Source: Promethearchaeota archaeon (lineage in GTDB: Archaea; Asgardarchaeota; Lokiarchaeia; Sigyniarchaeales; SOKP01). Taken from it: DNA of 64,000 bases. How positions within the stretch are numbered: position 1 is the stretch's first letter; every line of letters starts with the position of its first letter. A model generated the notes under the pieces. It made no database searches and was not told the DNA's origin. It was given only the letters and a program-made list of their open reading frames with translations. Both the position numbers and the translations under genes were made by a program. Below are positions 23,601 to 44,246 of this stretch, one piece after another. The stretch is taken from positions 32,001 through 96,000 of the forward strand of contig JAEOSU010000051.1 in the NCBI GenBank assembly GCA_016840165.1. The letters are read 5' to 3'.

Positions 23601-24959
23601 TTAGAGCCTATTGATATATCGATTTCGTTCCCATTCACTTACTATAACTCGATATGCATCATTTTCCTCTAATTTCGCATAGTAAAAATTCTTAAAGGGT
23701 TCCTCTCCAAACACTTCCTTCATGAACTCGGAACTATAGAATTCTCCTAATGCCTCGCTTAAACTACCGGGAAGGGAATTTATACCTTCTTTAATCATTT
23801 CCTTAGTGGTGAGATGATAAACATTTCGATCTGTTGGCTCGGGAATTTCAATATCATTGGAGAGAACCCCATCCATTCCCGTCTGTAATAAGACCGCAAA
23901 CTGTAAATAAGGATTTCCTGCCGGATCCGGACATCGTATTTCACATCTTGCGGCCGAGGATTTATTATGAAAATCAGGAACTCTAATCAAGGGAGATCTA
24001 TTCCTAAACCCCCATGCTATATAAACTGGAGCTTCATATCCCGGGACTAATCGCTTATAGGAGTTTGGCCAACTGCTTAAAACCGCACACATCGCTTTCG
24101 CATGCCGAAGTTGACCCGCAATCCATTTCTTCATAAGTAACGAGATATTGTCCTTATCATTCTCGTCATAAAACGCATTAGTTCCATTTTTCCAAAGACT
24201 TTGATGACAATGCATACCACTTCCATTTATTCCATCAAAAGGTTTAGGCATAAATGTTGCGGTCATATTATTCATTGCAGCAACTATTTTAATGATTGCT
24301 TTGATTGTTATAGTATTATCTGCTGAATTCACAGCCTCATCATAGCGAAAATCTATCTCATGCTGCCCATATGCTACTTCATGATGGAGAGCCTCGATCT
24401 CAATTCCCATCGCATCGCAATATTGAGCAATTGAATATCGCATTCGCTCGTTAATATCATAGGGATCATAGTCAAAATACCCGCGCATGTCTGACGGTTT
24501 AAATGCTGCTTCTCTCGCTTCTTGGTTCAAGATGAAAAATTCCATTTCAGGGGCACACAAGTACTTAAAGCCATGTTCTTCAGCTTTTTTCACTGCTCTT
24601 TGAAGAATGTATCGTGGATCTCCTTCATACCGATTTCCATCTGGTTTATATATATCACAAATGACACGAGCCACCCGATTACTATTTGTTCTCCATGGAA
24701 GCATATAAAATGTGCTTGGATCAGGCAATGCGACTTTGTCAGATTCCTCAATCGCTCCATAACCCGTTATAGAACTTCCGTCGAAATTCTCTCCATCCTG
24801 AAAAAAATCCTCAATGCGTTTCGAATTAATCTCAAAGGACTTGATAATACCATGGATATCAGTAAATTGAAGGTAAATAAATTTAATCTCCTCTTCTTTC
24901 ACCTTCTCAATTACCGCGTCACATAATTCTTTTCTATTAGGATCGTTTTTTTCAATCAT
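23601..24959 (-). CDS. glnA: Glutamine synthetase type I
   Basis: FDGSSI, HHEVAYGQHEI, FMPKP…NGSGMH, NSYKRLVPGYEAP, NRSPLIRVP, EIRCPDP. Confidence 0.97.
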   Translation of the reverse strand: MIEKNDPNRKELCDAVIEKVKEEEIKFIYLQFTDIHGIIKSFEINSKRIEDFFQDGENFDGSSITGYGAIEESDKVALPDPSTFYMLPWRTNSNRVARVICDIYKPDGNRYEGDPRYILQRAVKKAEEHGFKYLCAPEMEFFILNQEAREAAFKPSDMRGYFDYDPYDINERMRYSIAQYCDAMGIEIEALHHEVAYGQHEIDFRYDEAVNSADNTITIKAIIKIVAAMNNMTATFMPKPFDGINGSGMHCHQSLWKNGTNAFYDENDKDNISLLMKKWIAGQLRHAKAMCAVLSSWPNSYKRLVPGYEAPVYIAWGFRNRSPLIRVPDFHNKSSAARCEIRCPDPAGNPYLQFAVLLQTGMDGVLSNDIEIPEPTDRNVYHLTTKEMIKEGINSLPGSLSEALGEFYSSEFMKEVFGEEPFKNFYYAKLEENDAYRVIVSEWERNRYINRL

Positions 24960-25011: not shown

Positions 25012-25425
25012 CTACTCATAGGTTAGTAAAGAGTCCGTTCTTTCCTTAAAAAATTCCATAAAATCATCCACTATTTTAGATTTAATATCCAGTCTAACTT
25101 TCTCAATAGATTCTTCTAAACATGCTCGCAACTTAATAGCAGAGTCGGAGTTCCAGAAATAATGCGTAGGACCCTTATTTTTATAATTTCGTGGTTCTTT
25201 CGTGATACAAAAGTCGATTCTTTTACTACCAGATCTAATAATAGGGATGGTACCCTTATGAATGAATCGGTCACAGTTCCATTTGTAAAAATTTATCGTA
25301 GAGGCCTCGACAAAAATCTCTGATTTAGTCAATCCACTATATATCGCATATTCTTCACATTCACGACAAATTTTACTTTCATAAAAATACTCTTTACCAC
25401 AAATTGCGCATTTTAAGCCATGCAA
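25012..25425 (-). CDS. Uncharacterised Cys/Zn-finger protein with YxWN[C/S] motifs, upstream of glnA (paralog of 36252..36593)
   Basis: LKCAICGKEYFY…ICREC, YKWNC, KEP, YFWNS, C-terminus LLTYE. Confidence 0.8.
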   Translation of the reverse strand: MHGLKCAICGKEYFYESKICRECEEYAIYSGLTKSEIFVEASTINFYKWNCDRFIHKGTIPIIRSGSKRIDFCITKEPRNYKNKGPTHYFWNSDSAIKLRACLEESIEKVRLDIKSKIVDDFMEFFKERTDSLLTYE

Positions 25426-25652
25426 TATTAATCCTCTAATTATGATGGTAATTTTATACTAAAATAATATGCATGAAAATATATAAATTTTTATTATTGC
25501 ATCAAAATAATTATTTATTATACATTTTCTTCAAAATAATTGCTATTTATATTAAATATTTATTTAAAAATATGGAAATAATAATTTATGCTTATATTGA
25601 ACTTACCTAAAAATATAAATCATATTCAGAACTTGGTAAAAGTATTAGATTT

Positions 25653-25991
25653 TTATTCATATCTTGGATTTCCGCTATAAAAATCAGATGAAATTATCTT
25701 TAAGTTAGGTAAACAAGTCCAATTGGGCTTGAAAGGGATCTTACAATTAACAATATCAAGTAATTCAAGACGCTTGAGATGTTCAATACCCTTTAATTCT
25801 TTAATTGGATTTTCATTGAGGTAAAGTCTTTTTAAATTCCTTAGGGTATCTAATCCTCGAATTTCTTGGATCTGATTTCCCCCAAGATCTAATATTTCTA
25901 AGTGGTGGAGCTTCTCTAACCCTTCAGCCTTTTTGATCTGATTGTACTCCAAATTCAAATTTGTTAGATGTTTTAGAGAGTTAAGATTTTT
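25653..25991 (-). pseudogene. 5'-truncated SDS22-like leucine-rich-repeat gene fragment
   Basis: 22-aa LRR units (LNLEYNQI, LDLGGNQI, LYLNENPI); the LRR register continues upstream of the TTG at 25958 (KNLNSLKHLTN) up to the stop of the neighbouring ORF. Confidence 0.65.
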
Positions 25992-27396
25992 ATAATATTA
26001 TAAACGGTGAAATTATTTCTAATGGTAATACTAATGGTCTTTCTTCCGCTATCACCAAGTAGCAAGCCTCATTAACTATAACAAAATCTGAGAAAAATTC
26101 ATCTCTGTGTCCATCATCAAACAAGACATACACATATTGATTATCTCCGAGCTCACCTAGCTCAGTTGTGAATTTATCTGTAATCTTAGTCTTAATATTA
26201 TTCTCGTTTAATTTTTGTAAAATTAGATTTTTTTTATTTTGATTATTACTCTCTATATCGATTATTGGTTCGTTTATCAGGAATTCTCTCCTATTCACGA
26301 ATTCAATTCTATACTTAATCATGATCGTATCTTGTTCTTCAGTAAAGATGAGCCAAATAATATCAATGATATGGGGATTTGTAAGGACTGGTTGGCAATG
26401 AAAATGCACATGTACAGAGAAGGTTTCTATGATGTAGCCATGCCCACTAGATCTACGTACTGTAAACATGTTTGCTACTTCTTCCTTTGTTATTATATTA
26501 TCAGTAAGGGGTTTAAGTTTAATGCTTTTGATGATTGTGTCTCCAAAATAAACGACACGTAGCATTGGTGCCCTTGTCAAATAGCGAAGATTGATTGTTA
26601 TGGGGATTTGATCATATACATCAAATGTACGAGTAATTCCCAAAATATTATCAATATCCCCGCTTGCAAAACCCCTAGAATAGGATGAAAAGTAATATGA
26701 AGTTACTTGAACCTTTCTTGACAAAGCTAATGAAGGATGGGGGTATATCCGAATTGAATTTGCAGGGGCTCTTTTTCCATCTCGTTGAAATTGACGGATA
26801 TCTTGATTCATATAATGTTTTACGTCATAAGGATAGGTTTTGTCCAATGAATAATATTTACTTTTTCCTTCGCAATTTTGTTTTTTAAATATTTCAAATC
26901 CTGTAGGCGGAGGATCGACAAAGACATTATCTAGGACTAATGTCTTTTCCATACTTCCTGATTTCCCCTTGAGAGTTATCTTTAGAACGGTGTGATTAAA
27001 TGGGGTGATAAAGTTAAATACAAAATGCCCTGGACTTAGTTGAATTATGCCAACAACATTTAGTGGTGTGGTATTATCAGGTCTTTCATCTATTATGGTC
27101 ACTTGCACCTCTTCATTTTTAAGAGGAAACCATTGTTCTGTTCCATCTTCATGATACACAATCCCTGCAGTAAATGAGAGCGTTGCTAGTCTTAACGCTG
27201 GTAGGAGTGCATAAGAGTTTATTAAATCAAATCCATTTAAGGTGATATCTGAAAATTCTACATGATCTATGCCTTGAGCGAAACGATCTTTAAGTTTTGA
27301 AGATAATTTAACCTCCAAATCTTTAACACTGTATAATCCTTTAATGGTATATCGCTCTTCTGATATGCGTCTATCGAATGGATCTCTTGGACTCAT
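25990..27396 (-). CDS. Hypothetical beta-rich protein with a possible beta/gamma-crystallin-like motif
   Basis: 468-aa ORF; FEIFKKQNCEGKSKYY…NSIRI resembles a Greek-key crystallin motif. Confidence 0.6.
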   Translation of the reverse strand: MSPRDPFDRRISEERYTIKGLYSVKDLEVKLSSKLKDRFAQGIDHVEFSDITLNGFDLINSYALLPALRLATLSFTAGIVYHEDGTEQWFPLKNEEVQVTIIDERPDNTTPLNVVGIIQLSPGHFVFNFITPFNHTVLKITLKGKSGSMEKTLVLDNVFVDPPPTGFEIFKKQNCEGKSKYYSLDKTYPYDVKHYMNQDIRQFQRDGKRAPANSIRIYPHPSLALSRKVQVTSYYFSSYSRGFASGDIDNILGITRTFDVYDQIPITINLRYLTRAPMLRVVYFGDTIIKSIKLKPLTDNIITKEEVANMFTVRRSSGHGYIIETFSVHVHFHCQPVLTNPHIIDIIWLIFTEEQDTIMIKYRIEFVNRREFLINEPIIDIESNNQNKKNLILQKLNENNIKTKITDKFTTELGELGDNQYVYVLFDDGHRDEFFSDFVIVNEACYLVIAEERPLVLPLEIISPFIIL

Positions 27397-27659
27397 AAGT
27401 ATAATTTTTATTCACTAATTTAAAAATGTTTTCATTTTTTTACATTTTTGTAAGTTATAAAGATATTTTGCGTAAGCATCAAAATGTCTTATATAATTGA
27501 AATTGAAGAACAAAATAAGTTGCTTGGTAAAATCATACTCGATTCATCTAAAGGGAATAGATTCTGGTGACATACCCCCTCATATATACTACAAAGGAAA
27601 TAATAAGCCGTTATTCTCTATAATCATACCAATTTTCTTATTTTATTATTTTAATTTAT

Positions 27660-28154
27660 CTATATATAGATGTCAATTTTATCTAAAAATTCTAATGGTA
27701 AATAATTAAGATATCCTTCTTTTTTCAGATATTCTATCACAGTCGGATGACCACTTTTATATCGTTTCATAACCTCCTTAGGTAAAACCATCTTAGCCTG
27801 AGGATCTCCGACCATATATAACTCTTTTAATAAAGGAAAAGCAATATTTCGATGCAATAATCTTGTATCATACTTCATCTCAGACCAAGCCTGCAAATTG
27901 GAACAAGTCCCCCAGAAAATATCCTCAGGAGATATTTCTTTAACTTTTCGACGATTATACTCCATAGTACGATCCAAACTTTCAGCTACTTCGTCTATTG
28001 AATCTCTATACTTATTTGGTTCTATTTTACTATTAAGGCTCTCTAGAAGTAAAAATTTACATTGCCGGAAAAATTTCTCATTAATATAAATGTTGGAAAC
28101 TTTTCCTTCTAATCTTACAGTAATATACTCATTAATCTTAAATTCTTCTTTCAT
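27660..28154 (-). CDS. Lokiarchaeal LRR-associated domain protein (stand-alone)
   Basis: EFKINEYITVRLE…F.QCKFLLL…SIDE…FWGTCSNLQAW.E..YDTRLLHRNIAFPLLKEL..GDP.A, a domain recalled as recurrent in Lokiarchaeia. Confidence 0.75.
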   Translation of the reverse strand: MKEEFKINEYITVRLEGKVSNIYINEKFFRQCKFLLLESLNSKIEPNKYRDSIDEVAESLDRTMEYNRRKVKEISPEDIFWGTCSNLQAWSEMKYDTRLLHRNIAFPLLKELYMVGDPQAKMVLPKEVMKRYKSGHPTVIEYLKKEGYLNYLPLEFLDKIDIYI

Positions 28155-28370
28155 AGTTATTTCAAAATGAATATCGCGAAATTTTGTCTTATTAATCTAA
28201 TAGACATCTTATTCATATATTTATTTGTATCTTTTTGATATAGAAATTTCTGAGGAATATATCAAGATTTTATAAGATTTAAATAAAAAAATAGATTATT
28301 TTTGAATTAACATAATTGTGAAAATTATGTCGTCGAAATCTAATAGGATAACAAAAGAGGACTAAATAAA

Positions 28371-28682
28371 ATGAGATTTATCGCGTATTTTGAACTTAAT
28401 CCAAAATATGATCCATCTGAACTTGCAGAAGTTGGAATTGATCTAATGAAGAGAAAGTTATATCCTGCTGAGGGAGTGAAAACCCTTGCATGGTACATGA
28501 CTCCCGGACTCTGGGGTATTTCAGTTTCAGAGGCAGATAGTGTAGAAGCTTTAATGAACAATGTTCATGCATGGAGGATTGCAAAACCTGGAATATTTAC
28601 ATTCTTTAAAATTGAACCAGCTATGGATACCAAAGAATTAATACCGCTTGGCGTCCAATTAGCAAAAAGAGTTAAAGAATAG
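28371..28682 (+). CDS. DUF3303-like dimeric alpha/beta-barrel protein
   Basis: PAEGVKTLAWY…GISVSEADSVEAL…W…IEPAM. Confidence 0.7.
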   Translation: MRFIAYFELNPKYDPSELAEVGIDLMKRKLYPAEGVKTLAWYMTPGLWGISVSEADSVEALMNNVHAWRIAKPGIFTFFKIEPAMDTKELIPLGVQLAKRVKE

Positions 28683-28772
28683 AGCATATTCAAATTGATA
28701 TTAATAATTATCTTTTTTTTTATTTTAGTGTAAATTTTTTCTAAAACAAAATATTTAGATAATCCTTTTCCG

Positions 28773-28919
28773 TTATACTCGGCGGTGGATTCGTATCATC
28801 TCATCCCATAATTCTGGTTCTGAATAATGATTCTGGACAATTTCTTGAAGGGAATAAGAAGGCGGTAAACCTGAGTAGCTAACTTCTTTATTTTCATTAT
28901 CTTCTTTTTCATGATGCAT
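28773..28919 (-). CDS. Small 48-aa ORF not in the track (MHHEKEDNENKEVSYSGLPPSYSLQEIVQNHYSEPELWDEMIRIHRRV)
   Basis: ATG at 28919, TAA at 28773-28775, GAGGT SD-like motif 7 nt upstream; more GC-rich than its flanks. Confidence 0.5.
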   Translation of the reverse strand: MHHEKEDNENKEVSYSGLPPSYSLQEIVQNHYSEPELWDEMIRIHRRV

Positions 28920-29068
28920 TTAAATTACCTCATTAGCAATGATAAATGCCAATATTATCAAATATATATAAAGAAAAATTTGTAATTGATGCTAGAAGAC
29001 ACAATAAATTTCTTTCTATAAAAGAATATATATTACCTAAATCCTTCTAAAAAAGGCCTTAAGTAACC

Positions 29069-29278
29069 TTGCCTGGTATTAATATAGTGGCTAAACTAAG
29101 ATGTTTGAATTGTGGAAAGACAATCCATTTCCGTGAAGGGCAAGAGACAGAGTGTCCTAGATGTGGCTCAAATGAATATATACAAGTTTCATCATTTGAA
29201 ACGTGCGTAACATGCTATTGTATTTGCGCAATCGTTATTGTTCTCACTGGTTTTATATTATTATGGGTATTCGCTTAA
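29069..29278 (+). CDS. Small zinc-ribbon protein with Cys-rich C-terminal TM anchor
   Basis: CLNC…CPRC, then CVTCYCIC and a hydrophobic tail. Confidence 0.65.
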   Translation: MPGINIVAKLRCLNCGKTIHFREGQETECPRCGSNEYIQVSSFETCVTCYCICAIVIVLTGFILLWVFA

Positions 29279-29314
29279 CTCAATTCCCGTTTTAAGGATG
29301 CTAGGATCAATTGG

Positions 29315-29794
29315 CTATTTCTTCTTTTTTTTTGGAATTATTTTCATTAGTTCAATAATAATTCCAAAAGTATCTTCAGTATCCATATAAGCATAATGCA
29401 GTTTTACAATCTGCCCCATTTGAAGCGCTTTGATTCCCTTCTTTTTAAAATCTTCAACAGATAAATCGAGATCATCGACATACCTACCAATATGGTGAAA
29501 ACCTTCTCTCCCGCTATTAATAAATTCCTGATATATGTTCTCTCCATCTAATGGCTGAATCAGTTCAATATTTAAATTGAAATATTGCGTAGTTCCTAGC
29601 TTAATAGAATTTTTCGTTTCTTTTCCACGGTATGTGATTGTCTGATCATGAAATTCGAAGAAGGTAATCTTGGGGATATTATATATTGATTCCAATATTT
29701 GAGCTTGTTTTTCTACATCTTTATAGACAAAACCTAGTTGATCTACCTTTAAATCATTTAAAATTAGTCTATTTTCTTCATTCATAATAATCAT
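29315..29794 (-). CDS. VOC (glyoxalase/methylmalonyl-CoA epimerase-like) family protein
   Basis: DQLGFVYKD, IELIQP..G.NIY.EF…EGFHHIG, YAYMDT…GIIIEL. Confidence 0.88.
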   Translation of the reverse strand: MIIMNEENRLILNDLKVDQLGFVYKDVEKQAQILESIYNIPKITFFEFHDQTITYRGKETKNSIKLGTTQYFNLNIELIQPLDGENIYQEFINSGREGFHHIGRYVDDLDLSVEDFKKKGIKALQMGQIVKLHYAYMDTEDTFGIIIELMKIIPKKKKK

Positions 29795-29806
29795 ATAAAT
29801 TTTTAT

Positions 29807-30193
29807 TTAATAATTCCTAAAATTTGATATTAATCGTTCTAACTCACGATTCCAACTATCTAAATCTTTTACATACCATGCTGCTGCATCTATATCGCCC
29901 TGATCATTCTCAAAGGTAATTTTTAATAAGGTTCTGAAAACTGATTTGCCAAGGAACGATTTTGGATTTTCCACAGACTTAATTGCCACTATCGGTATTT
30001 TTAATTCCTTTTTCGGAGTCCACATCCCAAAAAAGAGTTCTTTATCCGTCAAGATTAGAACTCCATTCCCCCGAATTTGAGGTACCCGTTTTGAATCTTG
30101 GCCAAAGAAGTTTGCTCCTCTACTAGTGAGTAAAACATTCTTTCCAACAAATTGGTCCTCAATCTCTCGAGTGCGTTTTTTGAATAGTGGCAT
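29807..30193 (-). CDS. PH-like (GRAM-type) domain protein
   Basis: GNGVLILTDKELFF…LKIPIVAIKSVE…W at the C-terminal helix. Confidence 0.6.
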   Translation of the reverse strand: MPLFKKRTREIEDQFVGKNVLLTSRGANFFGQDSKRVPQIRGNGVLILTDKELFFGMWTPKKELKIPIVAIKSVENPKSFLGKSVFRTLLKITFENDQGDIDAAAWYVKDLDSWNRELERLISNFRNY

Positions 30194-30317
30194 TATTCAT
30201 TTTCTCTTATTTAAGATAAAAATCATGTTAAAATTAATAAAAATAAGAACAAATTATATTTAAAATTTAAAGCTTATCGAGATAGAACTATGTACCATAT
30301 TTTTAAAAAAAATGTTT

Positions 30318-31916
30318 TTAAGTTATACTCGTAGATTTTCTATCATATTCTTCTTTCTGTGCAGAATTTATCCCTTTCTTCTCTAATTGGTTGAAAAACA
30401 TCCCAACTCGTTCTTCAAACCCGAGATAATCCTTCTTATTCTTTTGTGTCCAACCGATCTCTGTTATCGCGAACAACCGTGGAAATAATTGCCATTCTAA
30501 CTTCTCGCGTGTTTTAATCAATTCTGTCCATACACATGCCTCAATTCCAACAATATTTTTATGATAATCATCCAATAAAACCTCTGGAATTGGATCATAT
30601 TGATAAACATTTTTCAATGAATTAGCCTTATATGAGTGGTTCAAATAGGTATGATTGATTTCAGAAATAATAACTTTTCTTCCTCTTCTCAGTTCATTGA
30701 GAATTTCCTCATGAGAGGCATTCCAATATTGACAATATACCTCTTTATTTAGGCTTTTATCAATGGTTTCATTCCAACTCACAACTTTCTTGCCATGAGC
30801 TATAAGAAAATCCGAGATTCTATTCGTAAAATAAAGTTGAAGTCCATCAACATTTTCAATCTTTTCTTGAGCTATCCTAGCTTGACAATCAGGACATCTT
30901 TTCCATCGACTTCTTGGAGCCTCATCGCCACCAATATGTATATATTCTGAAGGAAATAAATCGATAACCTCGCTTAAGATACCTTTGATATATTCGAAGG
31001 TTAGTTCTTTCCCGATACATAATACGTCTCTATAAATGCCAAATTGAGTTCCCACTTCAAATGGTCCTCCAGTACAACTTAATTCAGGATAAGATGCAAG
31101 TAAAGCCATAGTGTGCCCTGGAAGATCGATTTCTGGAATCACTGTGATATATCTCTGAGCAGCATAATCGATAATCTCCTTAATCTCCTCTTGTCTATAG
31201 TATCCTATTACAGGAATTCCGTCATTTTCAGTATTAGCGAAACTAGAATTTACAAACAATTTGCTTTTGGCCACAGCAGTTCCTTTTCTTTTCGATCCAA
31301 CTTCAATAAGTTTTGGATATCTCTTAATATCTATTCTCCATCCTTGATCATCGGTTAAATGCCAATGAAAAGTATTTAGTTTCAGTAATGCCATTATATC
31401 AAGGATACTTTTAACAATTTCTTTTCCAAAAAAGTGTCGTGCCTCATCTAACATAAATCCGCGCCACTGAAATCTTGGCACATCCTTAATTTCTACGCAG
31501 TTAAGCTTTAAAAAGACTTCTTCATTTTTATTGAACGCTGGATCCTTTTGAGAAATTAATTGGATGATAGTCTGAATTCCATAGAAAATGCCATTCTCAG
31601 TTGGTGAAATGAGTTCAATTTTATCTTCATTAATAGTTAAATGATATGCTTGAGGATTTTCATCCCCTAACCCACCAAGTTGTAAGATAATACAATTGTT
31701 CTTTTCTTTAGTGCTTTCAGAAGCAAAAATATTTAGATCTAAGTTATGGTTATCGTTAAGGAAATTGTTGAGATAGATGGCTAATGATTTCAACTCTTCA
31801 CTACAAATTATGGTTGTTTCCCTACTTATTATAAAACTATTAGATTTATTGATAATAAAGTTAGGTTTAGGGATTAAAGTATGTAAAATAGGTTTATTAA
31901 TTTTATGTTCTTCCAA
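30318..31916 (-). CDS. Beta-N-acetylhexosaminidase, GH20
   Basis: DVPRFQWRGFMLDEARHF, HWHLTDDQGWR, PEIDLPGH, HIGGDE (catalytic), WTE; no signal peptide. Confidence 0.95.
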   Translation of the reverse strand: MEEHKINKPILHTLIPKPNFIINKSNSFIISRETTIICSEELKSLAIYLNNFLNDNHNLDLNIFASESTKEKNNCIILQLGGLGDENPQAYHLTINEDKIELISPTENGIFYGIQTIIQLISQKDPAFNKNEEVFLKLNCVEIKDVPRFQWRGFMLDEARHFFGKEIVKSILDIMALLKLNTFHWHLTDDQGWRIDIKRYPKLIEVGSKRKGTAVAKSKLFVNSSFANTENDGIPVIGYYRQEEIKEIIDYAAQRYITVIPEIDLPGHTMALLASYPELSCTGGPFEVGTQFGIYRDVLCIGKELTFEYIKGILSEVIDLFPSEYIHIGGDEAPRSRWKRCPDCQARIAQEKIENVDGLQLYFTNRISDFLIAHGKKVVSWNETIDKSLNKEVYCQYWNASHEEILNELRRGRKVIISEINHTYLNHSYKANSLKNVYQYDPIPEVLLDDYHKNIVGIEACVWTELIKTREKLEWQLFPRLFAITEIGWTQKNKKDYLGFEERVGMFFNQLEKKGINSAQKEEYDRKSTSIT

Positions 31917-32019
31917 ATATTATCCCCATTATAATAAAATTTATTCATCTAAGTTAGAAAAACTCTTAAAAAATATAAGGGTAATTTAAACTATAGATTC
32001 ATAAACTAATCTGCTAAGT

Positions 32020-32517
32020 GTGATGTATATGGAAGATTCAAAACTCTCAGATATTGATAGTGTAGATTTAGAGATATTAAAAATCTTGAGCGAAGATGGT
32101 CGAACTGTATTTAATAAAATCGCCGATGAACTTAACAAATCTCCAGTCACTATTAAAAAGCATGTTCTAGACCTTGAAGAAAAAGGTCTTATAGAAGGAT
32201 ATGGGGCAAAAGTAAGTTTCGATAAGTTAGGGTATAATTTAATCGCATTCATTGAAATTACCATATCAAAAGGGAAAATGTTTGAAGTGGAGGAAAAAAT
32301 CGCTCGCAATCCCAATGTATTCGGAGTGTATGACATTACTGGTACCTACGATGCTCTCATCATGGGTCGTTTCAAATCAAGGATGCAACTTAGCAATATG
32401 ATTAAGGATATTCATAAATCTCCCTATGTAGAGAGAACTAATACCCATATTATTCTGAATGTGATTAAAGAAGGAACAAGCTTAAAAGAAATACTTGAAA
32501 ATGAAAACCTTGATTAG
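32020..32517 (+). CDS. Lrp/AsnC family transcriptional regulator
   Basis: DSVDLEILKILSEDGR…HTH…LEEKGLIEGY; VYDITGTYD. Confidence 0.93.
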   Translation: MMYMEDSKLSDIDSVDLEILKILSEDGRTVFNKIADELNKSPVTIKKHVLDLEEKGLIEGYGAKVSFDKLGYNLIAFIEITISKGKMFEVEEKIARNPNVFGVYDITGTYDALIMGRFKSRMQLSNMIKDIHKSPYVERTNTHIILNVIKEGTSLKEILENENLD

Positions 32518-32549
32518 ATAATCTTGAATTAGAAATCTTGAATTCAAAA

Positions 32550-32843
32550 CTATTTTAAGCTATCAAGCAATCCTAGAAAATTTGAATACGGAATAGCAGT
32601 CCAACTCTCCGCAAACATGGCACCTGCAGCACGTGATAATAATGAAACTTTTGCCGCTTCTTCTTCGTTTTTAGCCTCAAAAATATCAAGAAAATCATAT
32701 GGACCCAATATAGCATAGTGAGCAATCCATTTAATATTCGGTACTTTTTCTTTTACCGTATGTAGCCATTTTTCTCCTTGTTCCTTTCTTCTATCAACTA
32801 AATCAGGATTTTGTAATTTAGTTGCTAATATATAAATTGGCAT
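32550..32843 (-). CDS. GYD-domain protein
   Basis: MPIYILATKL…YAILGPYDFLDIFEAKNEEEAAK…ESWTAI. Confidence 0.88.
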   Translation of the reverse strand: MPIYILATKLQNPDLVDRRKEQGEKWLHTVKEKVPNIKWIAHYAILGPYDFLDIFEAKNEEEAAKVSLLSRAAGAMFAESWTAIPYSNFLGLLDSLK

Positions 32844-32975
32844 AAGAAATAATATTCTAAATAAAAATAAATAATTTTTTCCAACCCAATTTGAAATAAT
32901 TGTTAAATATTCAAATTTCTTAAAAAATAATTATTCTAATTTATTTAGAAATCCAATTAATTTAGAAGTGATTGT

Positions 32976-34565
32976 ATGAAATCACATATATTTCAAGGAT
33001 TATGCTTATTTTTCGTGATTTTTAATTTGACAATGGTTATACAAGGTAATTACTTTTATTCAACGAATATACCAGAAGATCAAATGGCTCTAGAGACTTC
33101 TCAATCTAATCCTCAAATTGAATGGAGTCCAAATGGCACAGTAATATGCTCAGAAATTAATTCACAAGGACCTATAGGGTTATGTAGTGATAATTTAGGC
33201 AACACAATAATAGTGTGGGGTGATAGAAGGAACCCATATTTAGATATATATGCTCAAAAAGTTAATTCAAATGGAGTTTCATTATGGGATATTAATGGTA
33301 CTGTAATCTGTGATTACAATGATAGTCAAGGATATATAAAGATGTGTTGCGATGGTTTAGGCGGGGCGATAGTTGTATGGGTCGATGAGAGAGATGATAT
33401 GGGTGATATCTATGCTCAGCGGGTTGATAGTAATGGAGTGCTATTATGGGATATTAATGGAACAATAATAAGCAATGAAAATAATTACCAATCTGATCCA
33501 GAACTTTGTAGCGATGGTAGCGGTGGCGCTATTATATCTTGGAGTGATGATAGAAATGGAGATCAAGATATTTATGCTCAACATATTAACGCAACTGGAA
33601 ATACTCTATGGGATAATAATGGCACAGCGATATGTAATTTGGCTGAATATCAAGGAGAGTCTGTTATTTGCTCAGATGATGCTGGAGGAGCAATTATTGC
33701 ATGGGTAGATGGGAGAGATACTTTATACGATATTTTTGCTCAAAGAATAACAGGAAATGGCAATATCTTGTGGCCAGAAAATGGTACTGGAATCTGCACT
33801 TCCCAACCTAGAGGAAAAAGTTATTTAGTAATGTCTAGCGATGGTTTCGGTGGAGCCATTATTGCTTGGCAAGATAATAGAGATATTCTATTAACTGGTA
33901 CAGACATCTATGCCGAAAGAATTAACGAGAATGGAGTTTCTCAATGGCACTATGATGGTAAAGCTATTTGTACAATTTTACCCGATCAATATAGCCCTTA
34001 TCTTTGCGTCGATAATAGTGGAGGAGCAATAATTGCTTGGACAGATGGCAGAGGTGGTATGGTAACAGAGTATGAAATTTATGCCCAGAAATTAGATCCA
34101 AATGGTAATATTCAATGGGCTTCAAATGGCAAATGTGTTTGCAATGCATATTATGACCAATGGCTCTCAGGAATAATCAATGATGGAAAGGGCGGGGCAA
34201 TTCTAGCTTGGATTGATGACAGAAATGGAAATGAAGATCTTTATGCTCAAAGAATAAGTTCTGACGGCGATGCTCTCTGGCAGTCAAATGGTTCTGTTAT
34301 CTGTAATGTAGAAGATGATCAAGATGCTGCTTATTTAACAAATGATGGTAAAGGTGTAGCCATTATTACGTGGCGTGACGATAGAAATGATGTAGGTGAT
34401 GTATATGCTCAGCGTGTGCTATATTCTCCGACTTCGACTGGAGAGTCGAATGGCATCCCATTAGGAGATTGGTATCTAGCATTTATGTTCATAACCTGTT
34501 TAGCACTCATAATTATCAATCTACAAAGAAAAAAGAATGGTAACATTTTTAAAAATAAATCCTAA
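32976..34565 (+). CDS. Secreted repeat (probable beta-propeller) surface protein with C-terminal membrane anchor
   Basis: Signal peptide, eight repeats of about 54 aa, C-terminal IPLG+TM+RKK tail. Confidence 0.85.
   Translation: MKSHIFQGLCLFFVIFNLTMVIQGNYFYSTNIPEDQMALETSQSNPQIEWSPNGTVICSEINSQGPIGLCSDNLGNTIIVWGDRRNPYLDIYAQKVNSNGVSLWDINGTVICDYNDSQGYIKMCCDGLGGAIVVWVDERDDMGDIYAQRVDSNGVLLWDINGTIISNENNYQSDPELCSDGSGGAIISWSDDRNGDQDIYAQHINATGNTLWDNNGTAICNLAEYQGESVICSDDAGGAIIAWVDGRDTLYDIFAQRITGNGNILWPENGTGICTSQPRGKSYLVMSSDGFGGAIIAWQDNRDILLTGTDIYAERINENGVSQWHYDGKAICTILPDQYSPYLCVDNSGGAIIAWTDGRGGMVTEYEIYAQKLDPNGNIQWASNGKCVCNAYYDQWLSGIINDGKGGAILAWIDDRNGNEDLYAQRISSDGDALWQSNGSVICNVEDDQDAAYLTNDGKGVAIITWRDDRNDVGDVYAQRVLYSPTSTGESNGIPLGDWYLAFMFITCLALIIINLQRKKNGNIFKNKS
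33123..34418 (+). repeat. Eight tandem coding repeats of about 54 aa (W..NG..IC…Q…DG.GGAII.W.D.R….DIYAQR…G)
   Basis: Read directly from the translation. Confidence 0.9.
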
Positions 34566-34722
34566 TTTTTTTTTAATTTTTATTGATAAAAGCGTCAGTA
34601 ATTCAAGGATATTTAATTTATAAATTGCTCTTTATGCTCACTCTTTACCTTTATCACTAAATTTGTCGAGTGTTTCAATATAAATTCCCTCAATAAATTT
34701 AGTTTATTAAAAAAAGATAAGA

Positions 34723-34935
34723 GTGATTAAATTGAGTTTGAATTCAACCCTTGTTAAGAATCATGTTCTTTTCGAGTTTGAAGTCGACCTCTTCGAATTA
34801 TCCCAAGTATTCACTCCTTATTCTGAATTTTTCAAAGCTAGTGATGTAAAAGATATTTACTCGGGAGACGAGGCTATCTCTTTTGAGAGTAAGGATCCTG
34901 AGTTTAAACGGATTATGCTCCTTGAATTTCTTTAA
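34723..34935 (+). CDS. Small hypothetical protein
   Basis: 70-aa ORF filling an intergenic gap, followed by a T-rich tract; no motif. Confidence 0.4.
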   Translation: MIKLSLNSTLVKNHVLFEFEVDLFELSQVFTPYSEFFKASDVKDIYSGDEAISFESKDPEFKRIMLLEFL

Positions 34936-34998
34936 TTTCTCCTTCTTTTTTTAAATTAGATATATAACTACTAAATTTTTTACCCTATCTCTTTAGTA

Positions 34999-35397
34999 TT
35001 ATCGGTTTTTTCTGTAAACGAAGATATCTAATCCTATTAAGCAAATAAGAATAATGTTGGTTGCCCACACGACTGCAGTTGGATAGAGTACATAGGAAAA
35101 AGCTATAAAATTAATTAAAGAAAAACTTATAAAAACCATCGCAATTTGCCAAGCAATAATTAACTCAAGAAATAGCTTAATTTGAATTATATTATTTCTA
35201 TATGATACTACTAGGGAAAAAATAGCTAAAACAAGAAGAGTTCCCCCAAATGCTATTTAGTAGAGTCTGTTAAACCTAGGCATACTTAGAAGTTCTAATA
35301 ATATATCGAAAATACTGATATACAATATTGAAAGAATAAAAAATACTACTGCATCTAATATCATTACAATTTTCAAATTCTTAGGAATTTCTGTCAA
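34999..35397 (-). pseudogene. 4-TM membrane protein gene interrupted by one in-frame TAA (35257-35259)
   Basis: GGGGTGA SD + TTG; MTEIPKNLKIVMILDAVVFF…RFNRLY*IAFGGTLLVLAIFSL…DIFVYRKNR; 133 codons in one frame. Confidence 0.7.
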
Positions 35398-35961
35398 TAT
35401 ATTTCACCCCTCATAATTGATTAAAGGTTGGATTAATACTGAAATTGAATTCAATTGTATTTTTAAATATTTCCATAAATGTAAAAACATATCTGAATAT
35501 AGGAAAGGAAAATATAAACCTAATCAAATGAGTTCTGGTTACTAGTCCTATAAAGCTTAAAATGCATTTTGTACAAATTTTAATTTTAACAACCATTTTA
35601 GGTTATTTCTTTAGCTAATTGCGTATTAATATAATGAATTTTATTTCATTGTATACAAAAATATTTATTCTTTTTCAGTTTTTTCAAATAATGTAATTAT
35701 TCTTATATTTTTGTCGAAATGGCTAACAAAAAATTGAAAAGATTTCAAAAAAATCATAAGTTTTAAATATAATTATTGACTAATTTGAACGAAAAATACA
35801 TTTTTATTTTCTAACTAAAAAGATTTCAATTTTCCCCATATTTCTGGAAAAATATAACACAAAGAACTCTATAACCTAAAAATTTTTAAGTGACCTAAAT
35901 CATATACTATCTAATATAAAATAAATGGGAACTCACTCCCACAAAAATGTAAAAAGGTGAA

Positions 35962-36225
35962 TTGATGATGGTTTTTCAAAAGTTAAAAAGTAGTATAGAA
36001 GCGATAATCTCTCTGTCCGAGGAGAAGGTGCCACGCACGTTTGAACAAATGTGCTTGGATAAATTGAAGGAGATTGGAGTATCTTCGGCCGCGGAATGGG
36101 GTGCGGCGATGGGCTACATGCACAGATCGTCCCTCGCAAAAGTAATTCGAAGGATACTCGCAAAGAACCCTGAAAAGCTTAAGGTATACTATAACAGGAA
36201 ACCACGTCAATATGAAGCCTTATAA
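35962..36225 (+). CDS. Small putative winged-HTH DNA-binding protein
   Basis: LDKLKEIGVSSAAEWGAAMGY…SLAKVIRRI…KLKVYYNRKPRQYEA, a helix-helix-helix-wing pattern; first gene of the glutamate synthase operon. Confidence 0.6.
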   Translation: MMMVFQKLKSSIEAIISLSEEKVPRTFEQMCLDKLKEIGVSSAAEWGAAMGYMHRSSLAKVIRRILAKNPEKLKVYYNRKPRQYEAL

Positions 36226-36251
36226 TGAGGTATAATATTGGTGATTAGATC

Positions 36252-36593
36252 GTGTTAAGATGTCCTGTATGTGATGAAGTATACTCTTATGGCAGAATGA
36301 TAAGTCATCTATGTGGTGGCAAGACATTCTTTTTCGGGGCTATCATTAATGAAAGACCCCATAAGTATCAATGGAATTGCTACCCTCATCCAAAGACAAT
36401 TCTCAGTGATTCAATTCCGAGTACTCACAGCTTCCCAACACCTAGAGACGACAAAGAACCAAACAGACTTGGATTTCTTAGTGATGAAATAAGTTCTAAA
36501 GTATTATATCCTTGGAATTGTTGTATGAATCAAAATGATGCAACTTTCATGTTACATCTTACTATATCAGATAGACAATTAATATACGAATAA
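36252..36593 (+). CDS. Uncharacterised Cys protein with YxWNC motifs, upstream of glutamate synthase (paralog of 25012..25425)
   Basis: LRCPVCDEVYSY…ISHLC, YQWNC, KEP, YPWNC, C-terminus QLIYE. Confidence 0.78.
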   Translation: MLRCPVCDEVYSYGRMISHLCGGKTFFFGAIINERPHKYQWNCYPHPKTILSDSIPSTHSFPTPRDDKEPNRLGFLSDEISSKVLYPWNCCMNQNDATFMLHLTISDRQLIYE

Positions 36594-36596
36594 GAC

Positions 36597-38252
36597 TTGA
36601 TACATATGCCGAACCAATCGAGGTTAACTTATCAATCGAGTTTGATAGGATCCAAAACACGGGTTCACGATTCCTGCGAGTCGGGATTATGTCCAGTATG
36701 TATCGCAGATTGTCCTGTGTTTTGTGAAGTATCAAAAGCCGCTCTTAGAGGTCGTGAAACACTATATCCTCAGAGAGAATATTATGGAATATCTACTGCG
36801 GGCTCTCCGAAAGATTTTGGGCTTTCATATAGGGATTTTCAAATCCAATTTGAGGTCAGAGGTGCTCAAGGGATAAAACCGGATGAAGATCTGGTTATTT
36901 TTCCGAATGTTGATTTAAGTTGTTATTGGGGCAATATTTTACAAAATCTTCCAATAGTTATTGCTGGGTTAGGAAGTACTTATGTAGCCAAAAGGAACTG
37001 GGAAGGATTAGCAAAAGGAGCAGCTCTGGCAGGCGTGAGCATTACTGTAGGAGAAAACGTAGTTGGTATGGATCCAAAAGCGCAGTTTGCCAATCATGCT
37101 ATTTATCCGCGAGTAATCGATACTGTAGATATGAAATCACGAATCAAAACATATCGCGAATATTGGGATGGAATTCATGGAGATATTATTGTTCAGAAAA
37201 ACGTAGAAGACGGCCGTTTAGGTGTTTTTGATTATGTAACTTCGACCCTCGAAGTTAACTGCTTAGAGTTGAAATTTGGGCAAGGAGCGAAGGCTATAGG
37301 CGGTGAAGTTCGCCTTGAATCCTTAAAAAAGGCACAATTATTACATGAGAGAGGGTATTTAGTGATCCCTGATCCAACAGATCCATTGGTTATTGATCAA
37401 TGGAATGCGGGATTGATTCCCGATTTTGAACGGCATAGTAGAATAGGGTTATCTTCTACTGACGAAATATTGGATGAGATCGATGAAATTAAAGCAACTG
37501 GAGTAAGAAACATCTTTATTAAGACTGGTGCTTATAGACCAGCAGCAACGGCGTGGATATTACGCTTAGGAATAGAAGCAAAGGTGGATGGGATGACCTT
37601 TGACGGTGCAGGAGGTGGGACCGGAATGAGTCCCGTCAGCATGATGAATGAAGGGTCCATCCCAACACTATATTTGGAAGCTTTAGTTGTAGGGTGTTTA
37701 GATATGTTAAAGAAGAATCATCCGAATATAACCCCTCCAACCATTGCCATCGCAGGCGGTTTTGCAAACGAGACTCAAATGTTCAAAGCTCTTGCCATGG
37801 GTGCACCATATATCAAGTGTATCGCCATGGCAAGAGCCCCTTTAACGGCTGGAATGAAAGCGAAATATATTGGTGATATAATAAAAAACCATACTGCTAA
37901 TCGGTCCATATTGAAAAGCTTAGGCTTTCCGGAGAGTAAGGATCCTCTTACTTTAACTTTAAACGAAGCTTTTGTGGAATATGAGGAATTAAAGAGAATG
38001 ATAGGTGATAAGGTTCCTCCGAGTGCTGTTGGAGTTTATACCTATTTTATGAGTAAATTAGGTACTGGCTTGAGACAGTTATTAGCAGGTGTTCGTAAGT
38101 TCAATTTAGAGTTAATTACAAGGGATGATATAGCATATTTATCGCAAAGAGCTGGCGATGTATGTAATAAGTGGAATTTAGGAATTAAATCTCAAGAAGC
38201 GGTAGATTTTGAAGCTGTGAAAAAGGAGATTTATTCAGGAAATTATGATTAA
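36597..38252 (+). CDS. FMN-binding glutamate synthase family protein (no glutamine amidotransferase domain)
   Basis: N-terminal SGLCPVCIADCPVFCE, LGST, GENV, ELKFGQGAK, DGAGGGTGMSP, AGGF. Confidence 0.88.
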   Translation: MIHMPNQSRLTYQSSLIGSKTRVHDSCESGLCPVCIADCPVFCEVSKAALRGRETLYPQREYYGISTAGSPKDFGLSYRDFQIQFEVRGAQGIKPDEDLVIFPNVDLSCYWGNILQNLPIVIAGLGSTYVAKRNWEGLAKGAALAGVSITVGENVVGMDPKAQFANHAIYPRVIDTVDMKSRIKTYREYWDGIHGDIIVQKNVEDGRLGVFDYVTSTLEVNCLELKFGQGAKAIGGEVRLESLKKAQLLHERGYLVIPDPTDPLVIDQWNAGLIPDFERHSRIGLSSTDEILDEIDEIKATGVRNIFIKTGAYRPAATAWILRLGIEAKVDGMTFDGAGGGTGMSPVSMMNEGSIPTLYLEALVVGCLDMLKKNHPNITPPTIAIAGGFANETQMFKALAMGAPYIKCIAMARAPLTAGMKAKYIGDIIKNHTANRSILKSLGFPESKDPLTLTLNEAFVEYEELKRMIGDKVPPSAVGVYTYFMSKLGTGLRQLLAGVRKFNLELITRDDIAYLSQRAGDVCNKWNLGIKSQEAVDFEAVKKEIYSGNYD

Positions 38253-41954: not shown

Positions 41955-42839
41955 ATGCCTTATAAAATTCTTAGAAAACAGCAATTAGGAACCAGTGGAA
42001 CATTACTCGAAATGGTTTTAGAAACTCCTCTAATTGCTAAAAAAGCATTCGCGGGCAATTTTGTCCTACTTAGAATTGATGAAACGGGGGAAAGATTTCC
42101 CCTCACCATCGCTGACTATAACCCAACAGAAGGTACAATTACTATCGTGGTCCAAATAGTTGGAAAAAGTACAAAACATCTCTCCAGCTTAAAGGAGGGA
42201 GATGAGATAGCGGATGTAGTTGGACCTCTTGGGAATAAAATTGAAATTAAGAGATATGAACATCCTATCATTATAATCGGTGGAGGGGTCGGGATAGCAC
42301 CCTGCTATCCTCAAGCAAAGGAATTAAAAAAAGCAGGAAATACTCTTTATACAATATTAGGAGCAAAGAATTCCGACTTAATTTTTTGGCGAGATAAATT
42401 CGCTACATTGAGCGATAAACTTATTATTACTACTGATGATGGAACCGAGGGGATTAAAGGTTTTGTAACCGATCCACTTAAAGAACTTATTAGTAAAGAA
42501 AAAATTAGTTTGGTGATTGCGATTGGCCCGCTTATAATGATGAAGAATGTAACACTAATCACTAATGGAAAGAATAATTTACCATTCGTAGAAACGGTTG
42601 TTTCATTAAATACAATAATGGTAGATGGAACAGGCATGTGTGGAGGGTGTAGATTCCCAACAATAAGTGGAGAATTTCATTTTGCTTGCGTAGATGGTCC
42701 AGATGTAAATGGGCATATCGTGGATTTTGATAATTTAATGAATCGCTCGATACGATACAGTACTCAAGAAAAGATTTCTCTAGATAGATATAATGGTCAT
42801 TGCCGTAGTGTTATCCATTTAGGCAAACCAAAAGAATAA
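41955..42839 (+). CDS. NfnA/SudB-like FAD/[2Fe-2S] subunit
   Basis: GERFPLTIAD, GPLG, GGGVG, DGTGMCGGC…ACVDGP. Confidence 0.9.
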   Translation: MPYKILRKQQLGTSGTLLEMVLETPLIAKKAFAGNFVLLRIDETGERFPLTIADYNPTEGTITIVVQIVGKSTKHLSSLKEGDEIADVVGPLGNKIEIKRYEHPIIIIGGGVGIAPCYPQAKELKKAGNTLYTILGAKNSDLIFWRDKFATLSDKLIITTDDGTEGIKGFVTDPLKELISKEKISLVIAIGPLIMMKNVTLITNGKNNLPFVETVVSLNTIMVDGTGMCGGCRFPTISGEFHFACVDGPDVNGHIVDFDNLMNRSIRYSTQEKISLDRYNGHCRSVIHLGKPKE

Positions 42840-42851
42840 GGAACAGAAGGC

Positions 42852-44246
42852 ATGGTAAAGATGAAAAAGTTATTACTTAGGCCAAAGATGCCCGAACAAG
42901 ATCCTCAAAAACGGATTGCTAATTTCGATGAAGTTCCATTAGGATATACCGAAGAAATGGCTCAAATAGAAGCTAACAGATGCTTACAGTGTGCGGATCC
43001 TAAATGTATTGGTGGTTGTCCCGTCAATATAGATATTCCCGGGTTTATTAAACTCATAAAAGAAAAGGAATATCGCAAATCAATCGAATATATCAAAGAA
43101 TTTAATATTTTACCCGCAATTTGTGGAAGAGTTTGTCCTCAAGAGGTTCAATGTGAACAAGCATGCATTCTAGGAAAAAAAAAGGATCCTATCGCGATTG
43201 GAGCCTTGGAGCGATTTATTGCTGATTGGGAACTAATTAATTCTCTTAAAGCTTGTCCAGATTGTAAGCCTCCAAATAATATTAAAGTAGCAGTTATTGG
43301 TTCTGGTCCAGCAGGTTTAACCTGTGCCGCGGATCTTGCCCGAAAAGGATATAACGTGACGATTTTCGAGGCTTTTCATGAGGGAGGAGGCGTTTTAGTA
43401 TATGGAATCCCTGAATTTCGTTTACCTAAAGAAATCGTTAAGGATGAAATCGAAACTCTCAAGATGCTTGGTGTTAAAATAGAATATAATAAAATTATTG
43501 GCAAGATTTTAACAATAGGAGATTTAAGGGATATGGAGTTCAAAGCTTTTTTCATAGGAGTTGGAGCTGGATTGCCAATAATGCTAAAAATGCCCGGGTT
43601 AAATCTAAATGGTGTGGTAACCGCTAATGAGCTCCTAACACGAGCCAATTTAATGAAAGCGTATAAATTTCCTGAATACGATACTCCAATTAACATTGGT
43701 AAAGTTATTACGGTTGTTGGTGGAGGTAATGTTGCTTTAGATTCGGCTAGAGTTGCTTTACGCTTAGGTGTGGATAAAGTAATTGTCGTCTATCGACGAA
43801 GCGAAGCCGAAATGCCTGCCAGAAAAGCGGAATATCATCATGCTAAAGAAGAGGGAATTGAATTCAAATTTCTTACAAATCCCATAGAAATTATCGGTGA
43901 TGACTATTCAAATGTAAAGCAATTAAAAGTGCTTAAAATGAAATTAGGTGAACCAGATGATTCTGGACGTAGAAGACCAATCCCAATTGAAAATTCTGAC
44001 TTCCTTATACCAACTGACACTATTATCCTCGCTATTGGTACTCGAGCGAATCCAATTTTGACTAAGACTTTACCAAATTTAAAGTTAAATAAATATGGTT
44101 ATATTGAAACTGATGAGTTAGGAAGAACCAATATTAAAGACATTTTTGCAGGGGGAGATATCGTAACTGGTTCTGCGACAGTGATTTCTGCTATGGGCGC
44201 TGGAAGAAACGCAGCTAAAGCAATCGATGAATATTTGAAATCTTAA
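42852..44246 (+). CDS. NfnB/SudA (GltD-like) NADPH-dependent oxidoreductase
   Basis: EANRCLQC…CIGGCPV, CGRVCPQEVQCEQAC, GSGPAG, YGIPEFRLP, GGGNVALD, FAGGD. Confidence 0.92.
   Translation: MVKMKKLLLRPKMPEQDPQKRIANFDEVPLGYTEEMAQIEANRCLQCADPKCIGGCPVNIDIPGFIKLIKEKEYRKSIEYIKEFNILPAICGRVCPQEVQCEQACILGKKKDPIAIGALERFIADWELINSLKACPDCKPPNNIKVAVIGSGPAGLTCAADLARKGYNVTIFEAFHEGGGVLVYGIPEFRLPKEIVKDEIETLKMLGVKIEYNKIIGKILTIGDLRDMEFKAFFIGVGAGLPIMLKMPGLNLNGVVTANELLTRANLMKAYKFPEYDTPINIGKVITVVGGGNVALDSARVALRLGVDKVIVVYRRSEAEMPARKAEYHHAKEEGIEFKFLTNPIEIIGDDYSNVKQLKVLKMKLGEPDDSGRRRPIPIENSDFLIPTDTIILAIGTRANPILTKTLPNLKLNKYGYIETDELGRTNIKDIFAGGDIVTGSATVISAMGAGRNAAKAIDEYLKS

Follow-up and report, generated by a model that had tools for sequence, protein, structure and literature searches.

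We analysed a window of 64,000 nucleotides (nt) from a Promethearchaeota archaeon of the order Sigyniarchaeales (assembly GCA_016840165.1, contig JAEOSU010000051.1, positions 32,001 to 96,000), in which two open reading frames (ORFs), A and B, encode small cysteine-containing proteins beside genes of glutamine and glutamate metabolism. ORF A, the A-type member of the family described here, lies at 25012..25425 on the minus strand, has a TTG start and a TAG stop and encodes 137 amino acids (aa) with CxxC-x10-CxxC, YKWNC, TKEP, YFWNS and the C-terminus LLTYE. ORF B, the B-type member, lies at 36252..36593 on the plus strand with a GTG start and a TAA stop; its 113 aa include CxxC...HxC, YQWNC, YPWNC and a C-terminal QLIYE. 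The original prediction had described the two ORFs by an ordered motif set, and on re-reading the sequence both ORFs and motifs were present as claimed: [LM]-[KR]-C-x2-C-x3-Y-x-Y-x3-I-x3-C is followed by Y[KQ]WNC, a second YxWN[SC] and the LLTYE or QLIYE end. KEP, which had been listed as a further common motif, is conserved in the A branch (E77 invariant, P78 in at least 90%), but it is not kept among B-type proteins.

The relationship of A and B was assessed by pairwise and profile comparisons. BLASTP of A against B gave an E-value of 2e-4. The local alignment had a score of 57, which exceeded that of shuffled controls (26.8 ± 4.7, n = 5000; z 6.5), one of the 5000 shuffles reaching 57. With hhalign the A family (11 sequences) matched the B family (6 sequences) at E 3.5e-5 and a probability of 72%. 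A profile built from A-type proteins only matched B-type proteins in other genomes with per-genome E-values of 1e-5 to 3e-9; the window's own ORF B was too diverged for a direct match. Because the A-only profile reaches the B-type proteins of other genomes, the paralogy of A and B follows by transitivity and synteny. By these sequence comparisons A and B are distantly related paralogues of one family.

A combined-profile search of 1.84 billion cluster representatives yielded 69 proteins at E ≤ 1e-3, all of them short (46-171 aa), and the family comprises about 69 clusters at 50% identity. An alignment of 47 sequences showed an N-module of ~45 aa with the pattern h-K-C-P-x-C-G-x-E-Y-S-Y-G-R-K-I-C-H-x-C ... 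G-x-I-F ... Y-x-W-N-C, then a variable linker, a second Y-x-W-N-(C) and a C-terminus one residue past an aromatic. The knuckles differ by branch, being CxxC-x10-CxxC in A-type and CxxC...HxC in B-type proteins, and some B-type proteins of ~170 aa contain the N-module twice. No Pfam, NCBIfam or PDB family matched; only sub-threshold similarities to zinc ribbons were seen. DZR_2 gave such matches in 29/47 members (best E 0.002), PDB entry 6htj was reached at E 0.011, and all profile matches to the Pfam zinc ribbons DZR_2, Zn_ribbon_3 and zf-ChsH2 stayed below the curated cut-offs. The weak PDB profile matches were zinc ribbons of DUF35-type proteins. ESM Atlas leads for A, an A-type relative and the winged-helix-like protein encoded upstream of B (see below) were generic zinc-ribbon and winged-helix clusters below 0.9 and one unnamed cluster at 0.91. 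The N-module is predicted to form a metal-binding zinc ribbon, similar to DZR and DUF35 (ChsH2) in its CxxC...CxxC spacing and in the sub-threshold matches, yet with WNC motifs and a YE tail that have no counterpart there. The earlier proposal of an undescribed, dedicated family was thus borne out in that A and B are paralogous and their homologues matched nothing in Pfam, NCBIfam or PDB above threshold.

Within the window's taxonomic family, members of the zinc-ribbon family were detected in 87/131 genomes, most of which belong to two genera (37/41 and 43/50). A survey of the phylum detected the zinc-ribbon family in 45/68 genomes of that taxonomic family versus 0/232 genomes from 29 other families; one member was labelled by its source as coming from a Lokiarchaeota metagenome-assembled genome. 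The window's genome has A, B, a third short member and a decayed remnant. The third member (contig C8, 63480-63710, minus strand) has 66 aa, ends with LYTFE and adjoins radical SAM, GFO/IDH/MocA and CCG/Fer4 genes. The remnant (C26:25302-25490, minus strand) has no CxxC knuckle and lies at the end of a cluster of genes for glutamate dehydrogenase (GDH), a receiver-domain (REC)-AsnC protein, a histidine kinase and a response regulator.

For counts of tails and neighbourhoods we collected 93 distinct family members from genomes, representing about 90 loci, the flanking genes of which were classed by clustering and Pfam. The terminal YE of A and B proved to be widely conserved, 71/93 members ending with [YF]E (63 YE, 8 FE), an end that occurs in 0.6% of the long ORFs of the window's genome. 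Among the 71 tails, 55 have L at position -4, and 57 have I, V or L at position -3. The stand-alone forms have the consensus L-[IVL]-[YF]-E, and their terminal Glu is invariant. A hydrophobic-Tyr-X end of this kind is HbYX-like, and the chain always stops exactly one residue past the aromatic, as would suit an adaptor docking to a proteasome or unfoldase via the pockets of the 20S alpha-ring, or a degron for regulated turnover. We consider this very improbable. Position -3 is T or S in the window's A and its close kin and K in other members, the final residue is Glu in every tail while HbYX leaves X open, and the loci examined showed no genomic link to proteasome genes.

A is located 52 nt upstream of glnA (23601..24959, minus strand), a spacing that the original prediction had given correctly. 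Pfam and TIGR00653 (506 bits) identified the product above cut-off as type I glutamine synthetase (GS), and this gene is the only GS gene of the genome (single PF00120 match). In 28/28 distinct loci the A-type gene immediately preceded a GS gene on the same strand at a gap of -8 to 100 nt. GlnA is ~80% identical across the relatives, while the A-type protein drops to 28-40%. In three genomes the A-type gene is followed by a 504-aa GS paralogue (37-39% identity) and then by amt-glnK and the canonical glnA. Across the whole family 75/93 members have a GS, GltB-like/glutamate synthase (GOGAT) or GDH gene within 4 kb; the homologues thus are strongly concentrated beside genes of glutamate and glutamine assimilation. 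Three side observations concern the surroundings of A. amt-glnK is also part of the island in some sister-genus genomes; glnA is followed by a gene for glutamine-dependent NAD synthetase (CN_hydrolase and NAD_synthase, 549 aa) at the sister-genus loci L062, L061 and L068; and genes for leucine-rich-repeat proteins recur just upstream of A- or B-type genes of several genomes (25653-25958, minus strand, in the window; L027, L031 and L046).

The pairing of A with GS could mean that the family members are modulators or scaffolds of enzymes, A binding GS and B binding the GltB-like protein or GOGAT, with the Tyr-Glu end possibly filling the glutamate site. Precedents would be IF7/IF17 and sP26, which act on GS, the tail of TnrA/GlnR, which inserts into GS, and the DUF35 zinc-ribbon protein, which is a scaffold for two enzymes. 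The position directly upstream of GS at short gaps in all A-type loci speaks for it, the more so as the pairing holds even where the GS paralogue is the next gene. Furthermore, GS, GOGAT-type enzymes and GDH all bind glutamate, the terminal Glu is invariant, and the weak PDB profile matches were to DUF35-type zinc ribbons. On the other hand, the same tail occurs across branches with different enzymes, which points to one common receptor; ten B-type genes keep their winged-helix partner without a downstream enzyme gene; and fusions of the module involve a transcription factor and in no case an enzyme (see below). Direct enzyme binding is possible but in our view unlikely.

The small zinc-ribbon protein with an invariant terminal Glu next to a GS-family ligase also resembles LysW, which consists of a zinc ribbon and a terminal Glu, and Pup, PafA and Dop having a GS fold. 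In such a scheme the family members would be carriers or tags, on the terminal gamma-carboxylate of which an ATP-dependent ligase, GS-fold or other, would act. This we regard as highly improbable: the adjoining enzyme is the genome's only GS and a typical GlnA with ~80% conservation, and the B-type and short members have no neighbouring ligase. LysW was rejected as a relative since there was no Pfam match at E ≤ 0.1-1 to the LysW or Pup families and no LysX/Z/Y/J/K-type gene was annotated in the loci seen. Pup, a disordered protein of ~60 aa that ends with GGQ or GGE, was dismissed on account of the unlike tail (L-Phi-Y-E in the A/B family versus EDWGE or GGE), the predicted structured zinc ribbon and the canonical nature of the adjoining GS-fold gene; PafA/Dop-type genes were likewise absent from these loci.

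B is the second gene of its unit. The first gene (35962..36225, plus strand) ends 26 nt before B and encodes a protein of 87 aa, which we infer to be of the helix-turn-helix (HTH) type and call winged-helix-like. Its family had neither a Pfam match nor a PDB match in sequence searches, and Atlas features placed it near small winged-helix clusters at 0.85-0.91. Thirty of about 31 B-type genes are located directly behind such a gene at gaps of 8-129 nt, and the phyletic range of the winged-helix-like gene equals that of the zinc-ribbon family (g1 40/41, g2 39/50). Downstream of the family members the picture is less uniform. About 24 precede GltB-like genes, genes for HdrD-like CCG/4Fe-4S proteins plus GATase2/Fer4-GltB/GXGXG, or directly a three-gene archaeal GOGAT set, whereas the ten B-type genes mentioned above have no enzyme gene downstream. 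No enzyme gene is as closely linked to B as the winged-helix-like gene. Forms of 117 aa are found ahead of a metallo-beta-lactamase (MBL)-fold hydrolase gene, and short tail-bearing forms near genes of the N-formylglutamate-amidohydrolase (FGase) family and near PfkB-like, radical SAM and CCG/Fer4 genes. A second winged-helix-like paralogue of the window's genome (C15:41609-41806, plus strand) stands alone with no zinc-ribbon family member beside it; it is preceded by a perfect palindrome, CTTATACGGAT/ATCCGTATAAG, which is unlike the repeat described below.

The gene downstream of B (36597..38252, plus strand) encodes a GltB-like protein of 551 aa with a flavin mononucleotide (FMN) domain and an N-terminal Cys cluster. 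It had been predicted to start 3 nt behind B and in frame with it, which depends on the TTG at 36597. Because orthologues align from residue 4, the ATG at 36606 is the likelier start; the resulting gap of 12 nt is also present at locus L006. Recoding of the stop codon at this junction was considered and dropped, B ending with a plain TAA and the next start probably being 12 nt on. A glutamate synthase has amidotransferase, FMN (GltB) and GXGXG domains, either fused or as the archaeal three-gene set. The protein did not qualify as one, as it matched PF01645 only partially (44.5 bits); no NCBIfam or PDB match was obtained. Searches of the window's genome by tblastn with the proteins of a relative revealed no GATase2, Fer4-GltB or GXGXG orthologue, while relatives have a true three-gene GOGAT set after B or after the GltB-like gene. 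Because these archaeal GOGAT genes were undetected in the genome, the GOGAT arm of the original prediction was an overstatement, and the gene encodes a GltB-like paralogue with an FMN domain.

At many loci the family members are co-oriented with the next gene and only a short gap away from it, which would also be compatible with A and B being cis-acting leader ORFs, in which a terminal YE-stop stalls ribosomes and thereby controls the next gene, as had been suggested. The data fit this poorly and we consider it extremely improbable. The stop codons vary (TAA 37, TGA 20, TAG 14), as does the spacing to the next gene (gaps of -8 to >700 nt), and at the ten B-type loci an enzyme gene to be controlled is missing. 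In addition, the products are proteins of 100-137 aa with a conserved module of predicted metal-binding capacity, which is also found fused to a regulator.

The promoter regions of the two units have features in common. In the window an inverted repeat, T-GGGA-ACTCAC-TCCC-A (35926..35941, core 35927-35940), is located 35 nt before the winged-helix-like gene. Upstream of this gene 30/32 loci have (A/T)(A/G)T-GGGA-N6-TCCC-A with a fixed span of 14 nt, 23-117 nt before the start. A related GGG-N6-8-CCC repeat is present in 12/28 A-type upstream regions and in four A-like ones, among them many A-glnA promoters of the sister genus, compared to 8/263 other upstream regions as a control. Winged-helix and A promoters alike have a TATA-like box ~36 nt before the start of the repeat and, ~20 nt upstream of the TATA, a GTTTA(G/C)A box. 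With TGGGA-N6-TCCCA as its conserved core, the repeat usually reads GGAA-N4-TTCC. Genome-wide, GGGA-N6-TCCC occurs at 22 sites in the window's genome versus 6.6 expected, but the scan revealed no clear regulon past the winged-helix/B promoter. A search of Rfam with positions 35600-36300 matched nothing.

The repeat is a candidate for an operator or for a leader hairpin. The fixed spacing and the invariant letters without compensatory changes lead us to favor a DNA operator of a dimeric regulator, whereas an RNA hairpin has to be considered because of the probable leader position and the variable spacer in A promoters. Should it be a hairpin, the zinc-ribbon proteins themselves could be RNA-binding autoregulators, which bind GGGA...UCCC in the leader and steer translation or stability. 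Zinc ribbons often bind nucleic acids, the distance of ~36 nt from the TATA box puts the repeat probably into the transcribed leader, and a spacer that varies from 12 to 14 nt in A promoters is easier to reconcile with a hairpin loop than with the operator of a dimer. We consider it improbable nevertheless, as the span of 14 nt is fixed in 30/30 winged-helix promoters, GGGA and TCCC are invariant and compensatory pair changes are lacking. Moreover, the stem has only 4-5 bp, a fifth pair forms in only about 17/30 sites, and Rfam had no match.

Between the A-glnA unit and the winged-helix/B unit the window contains a gene for an Lrp/AsnC-family regulator according to Pfam (32020..32517, plus strand). 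The original prediction had overlooked this regulator of a known type within the conserved island. The sister genus has the two units side by side and pointing away from each other, in the order glnA<-A / AsnC->wHTH->B->enzymes, while in the window A-glnA, AsnC and the winged-helix/B genes are spread across 11 kb. Farther downstream, at 41955-47047 on the plus strand, lie genes for an NfnA/SudB-like Fe-S subunit (294 aa) and a GltD/NfnB-like protein with Fer4_20 and Pyr_redox_2 (464 aa) and two tandem GDH genes (416 and 419 aa). Because these genes lie 4-9 kb past the GltB-like gene, we regard 23.6-47 kb as a glutamate/glutamine island. A GYD-domain protein gene (32550-32843, minus strand) is located beside the Lrp/AsnC gene. 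In the sister genus (L016-L035) boxes of the TGATCA type follow right after the TATA of the A promoter and recur 2-5 times between the divergent A and AsnC genes. These boxes are candidates for binding by Lrp/AsnC; in the window's clade (C/G)AT(G/A)CAT is found in their place.

A direct connection of the N-module with a regulator was seen in a third group of about 18 members, which belong to a cluster of response-regulator, histidine-kinase, REC-AsnC and GDH genes. In the sister genus this GDH cluster encodes a protein of 197 aa, in which the 45-aa N-module precedes HTH_AsnC and the AsnC_trans_reg (RAM) domain as an N-terminal fusion. Both these fused members and the regulator at 32020-32517 matched HTH_AsnC/HTH_24 and RAM above the cut-offs. 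The module on the fused AsnC takes the same position as the receiver domain on the REC-AsnC protein of the same cluster, though it is not a receiver domain itself. In the window's genus the N-module of the GDH cluster stands alone (73-84 aa). Neither the fused nor the stand-alone forms of this cluster have a YE tail. Longer fused forms (>240 aa) were not found in the search, which is weak evidence.

Taken together, we tentatively favor the view that HTH regulators of glutamate and glutamine metabolism use the N-module for signal input or for protein interaction, with the A- and B-type proteins probably being regulators. We do so because the module is fused to Lrp/AsnC at the position of a receiver domain, because B is tied closer to the winged-helix-like gene than to any enzyme, and because the A-glnA and winged-helix/B operons have a common promoter architecture. 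In cis, the module would work on the Lrp/AsnC regulator to which it is fused in the two-component/GDH cluster. In trans, B would pair with the winged-helix-like protein encoded just upstream, with the TGGGA-N6-TCCCA repeat in the promoter or leader of the latter. A may join the same winged-helix/repeat circuit, many A-glnA promoters having the repeat too, and/or act with the neighbouring Lrp/AsnC regulator. The invariant free C-terminal tail of the stand-alone forms would be their docking or output peptide; its presence only on modules that are not covalently tethered is as expected for a docking peptide. To the observed family membership, neighbourhoods, fusion, common repeat and taxonomic range this proposal adds physical interactions, a sensed signal and a direction of control, all of which we infer. 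Of the dedicated nitrogen-control family that had been predicted, the genomic association with glutamate and glutamine genes is thus supported, while a specific mechanism goes beyond the association.

Several points weigh against regulator modules. A is always paired with a GS gene and not with a regulator gene, an arrangement that a direct action on the enzyme would explain just as well. The repeat is missing from the A promoter of the window, and in the winged-helix promoters it is in the probable 5' leader, where it could act as RNA. The winged-helix assignment comes from pattern and weak language-model leads only. AF2 monomer models were unusable, with a pLDDT of 40 for A (11-row alignment) and 43 for B (6 rows). 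A complex prediction of GlnA, two AsnC and A returned a score of 0.00 and thus no answer, which counts neither for nor against binding. Furthermore, a few members adjoin unrelated genes (MBL-fold hydrolase; radical SAM/PfkB-like/FGase cluster), and all carrier genomes are close kin, the synteny representing few independent events.

The last two points lead to the question whether the family has a dedicated role in nitrogen metabolism at all. The members could be small zinc-ribbon proteins with another task, such as metal handling or enzyme maturation, and the synteny could be inherited. The family is confined to essentially two genera, and the neighbourhoods therefore represent few independent events; some members have MBL-fold, radical SAM, PfkB-like or CCG/Fer4 genes as neighbours, and truncated or decayed copies occur. 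Against this, three paralogue branches are located at three different glutamate/glutamine enzymes, and the adjacency of A with GS and of the winged-helix-like gene with B has outlasted the rearrangement that parted the units by 11 kb in the window. A retains its position although its identity drops down to 28%, and the two units have the promoter repeat in common. We hold the lack of a nitrogen role to be decidedly unlikely.

If the family took part in nitrogen control, the equipment of its genomes with classical regulators is of interest. The window's genome is 99.7% complete and has a single GS and several GDH genes. NrpR and PII had gone unrecognised in the window, and likewise in this whole genome PII was not detected anywhere in it, and NrpR (PF01995) was not found there, while control genomes matched. 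PII was present in 0/41 genomes of the window's genus and in 6/50 of the sister genus, there as amt-glnK beside A-glnA. By comparison, PII was detected in 17/29 genomes from g3, g5, g6, g7 and g12, the five genera poor in the zinc-ribbon family. The distributions of PII and of the zinc-ribbon family are thus roughly complementary, which rests on very few evolutionary events. The NrpR operator of methanogens is GGAA-N6-TTCC. The repeat described here resembles it as a GGAA/TTCC-type inverted repeat just past the TATA box at promoters of nitrogen assimilation, but it differs by its TGGGA-N6-TCCCA core, usually with GGAA-N4-TTCC. With this spacing and with no NrpR gene detected in the genome, the repeat does not mark an NrpR regulon.

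A bolder version of the regulator view, to which we would give a rather small chance, is that the free Tyr-Glu tail is a tethered glutamate mimic of a self-contained nitrogen-control circuit, evolved in a Lokiarchaeial lineage in which PII and NrpR are mostly undetected. The tail would dock in the RAM pocket of Lrp/AsnC or in the glutamate sites of GS, GOGAT-type enzymes and GDH. Free glutamate or glutamine would compete with it and thereby switch the winged-helix/TGGGA-N6-TCCCA regulon, and the tail-less module-AsnC fusion would be a hard-wired version of the same contact.

Compared to known systems, the regulators proposed here most plausibly would work like PipX, the cyanobacterial adaptor between PII and the regulator NtcA. 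Like PipX, A and B are small, stand alone and would serve nitrogen control by attaching to a transcription factor and perhaps to another partner as well. Yet they have no sequence relation to PipX, no Pfam family being matched, they possess a zinc ribbon and a fixed [YF]E tail, and most genomes with A and B showed no PII. The GS inactivating factors IF7/IF17 and sP26 of M. mazei are small proteins that bind GS, and A is always beside the GS gene; in contrast to them A probably is co-transcribed with glnA and not separately repressed, and A-related modules also occur at loci of GOGAT-type enzymes and of GDH and as part of a regulator fusion. Homology to these proteins was not detected, and no Pfam or NCBIfam family of IF7/IF17, sP26 or PipX was matched. 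In glnRA of B. subtilis a small regulator gene likewise is promoter-proximal ahead of glnA, and the C-terminal tails of GlnR and TnrA contact GS, as the tail of A possibly does; GlnR, however, is a MerR-type DNA binder, while A has no recognisable DNA-binding domain. The zinc-ribbon family thus resembles known small-protein and co-regulator systems (PipX, IF7/IF17, GlnR-GS) in kind and is unrelated to them.

What is new is an undescribed, lineage-restricted family at glutamine and glutamate genes, which has a partner gene, is associated with a promoter repeat and includes fusions to a regulator. Asgard archaea are the closest known prokaryotic relatives of eukaryotes, and to our knowledge the control of their nitrogen assimilation is essentially unknown. 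The free, invariant C-terminus L-Phi-[YF]-E is unusual and sharply defined, and its receptor would be worth finding. The parts of the putative circuit are small, defined and easy to express, so that the hypothesis is directly testable. The family, its winged-helix-like partner, the promoter repeat and the Lrp/AsnC fusion point to a lineage-specific replacement of, or addition to, the classical regulators.

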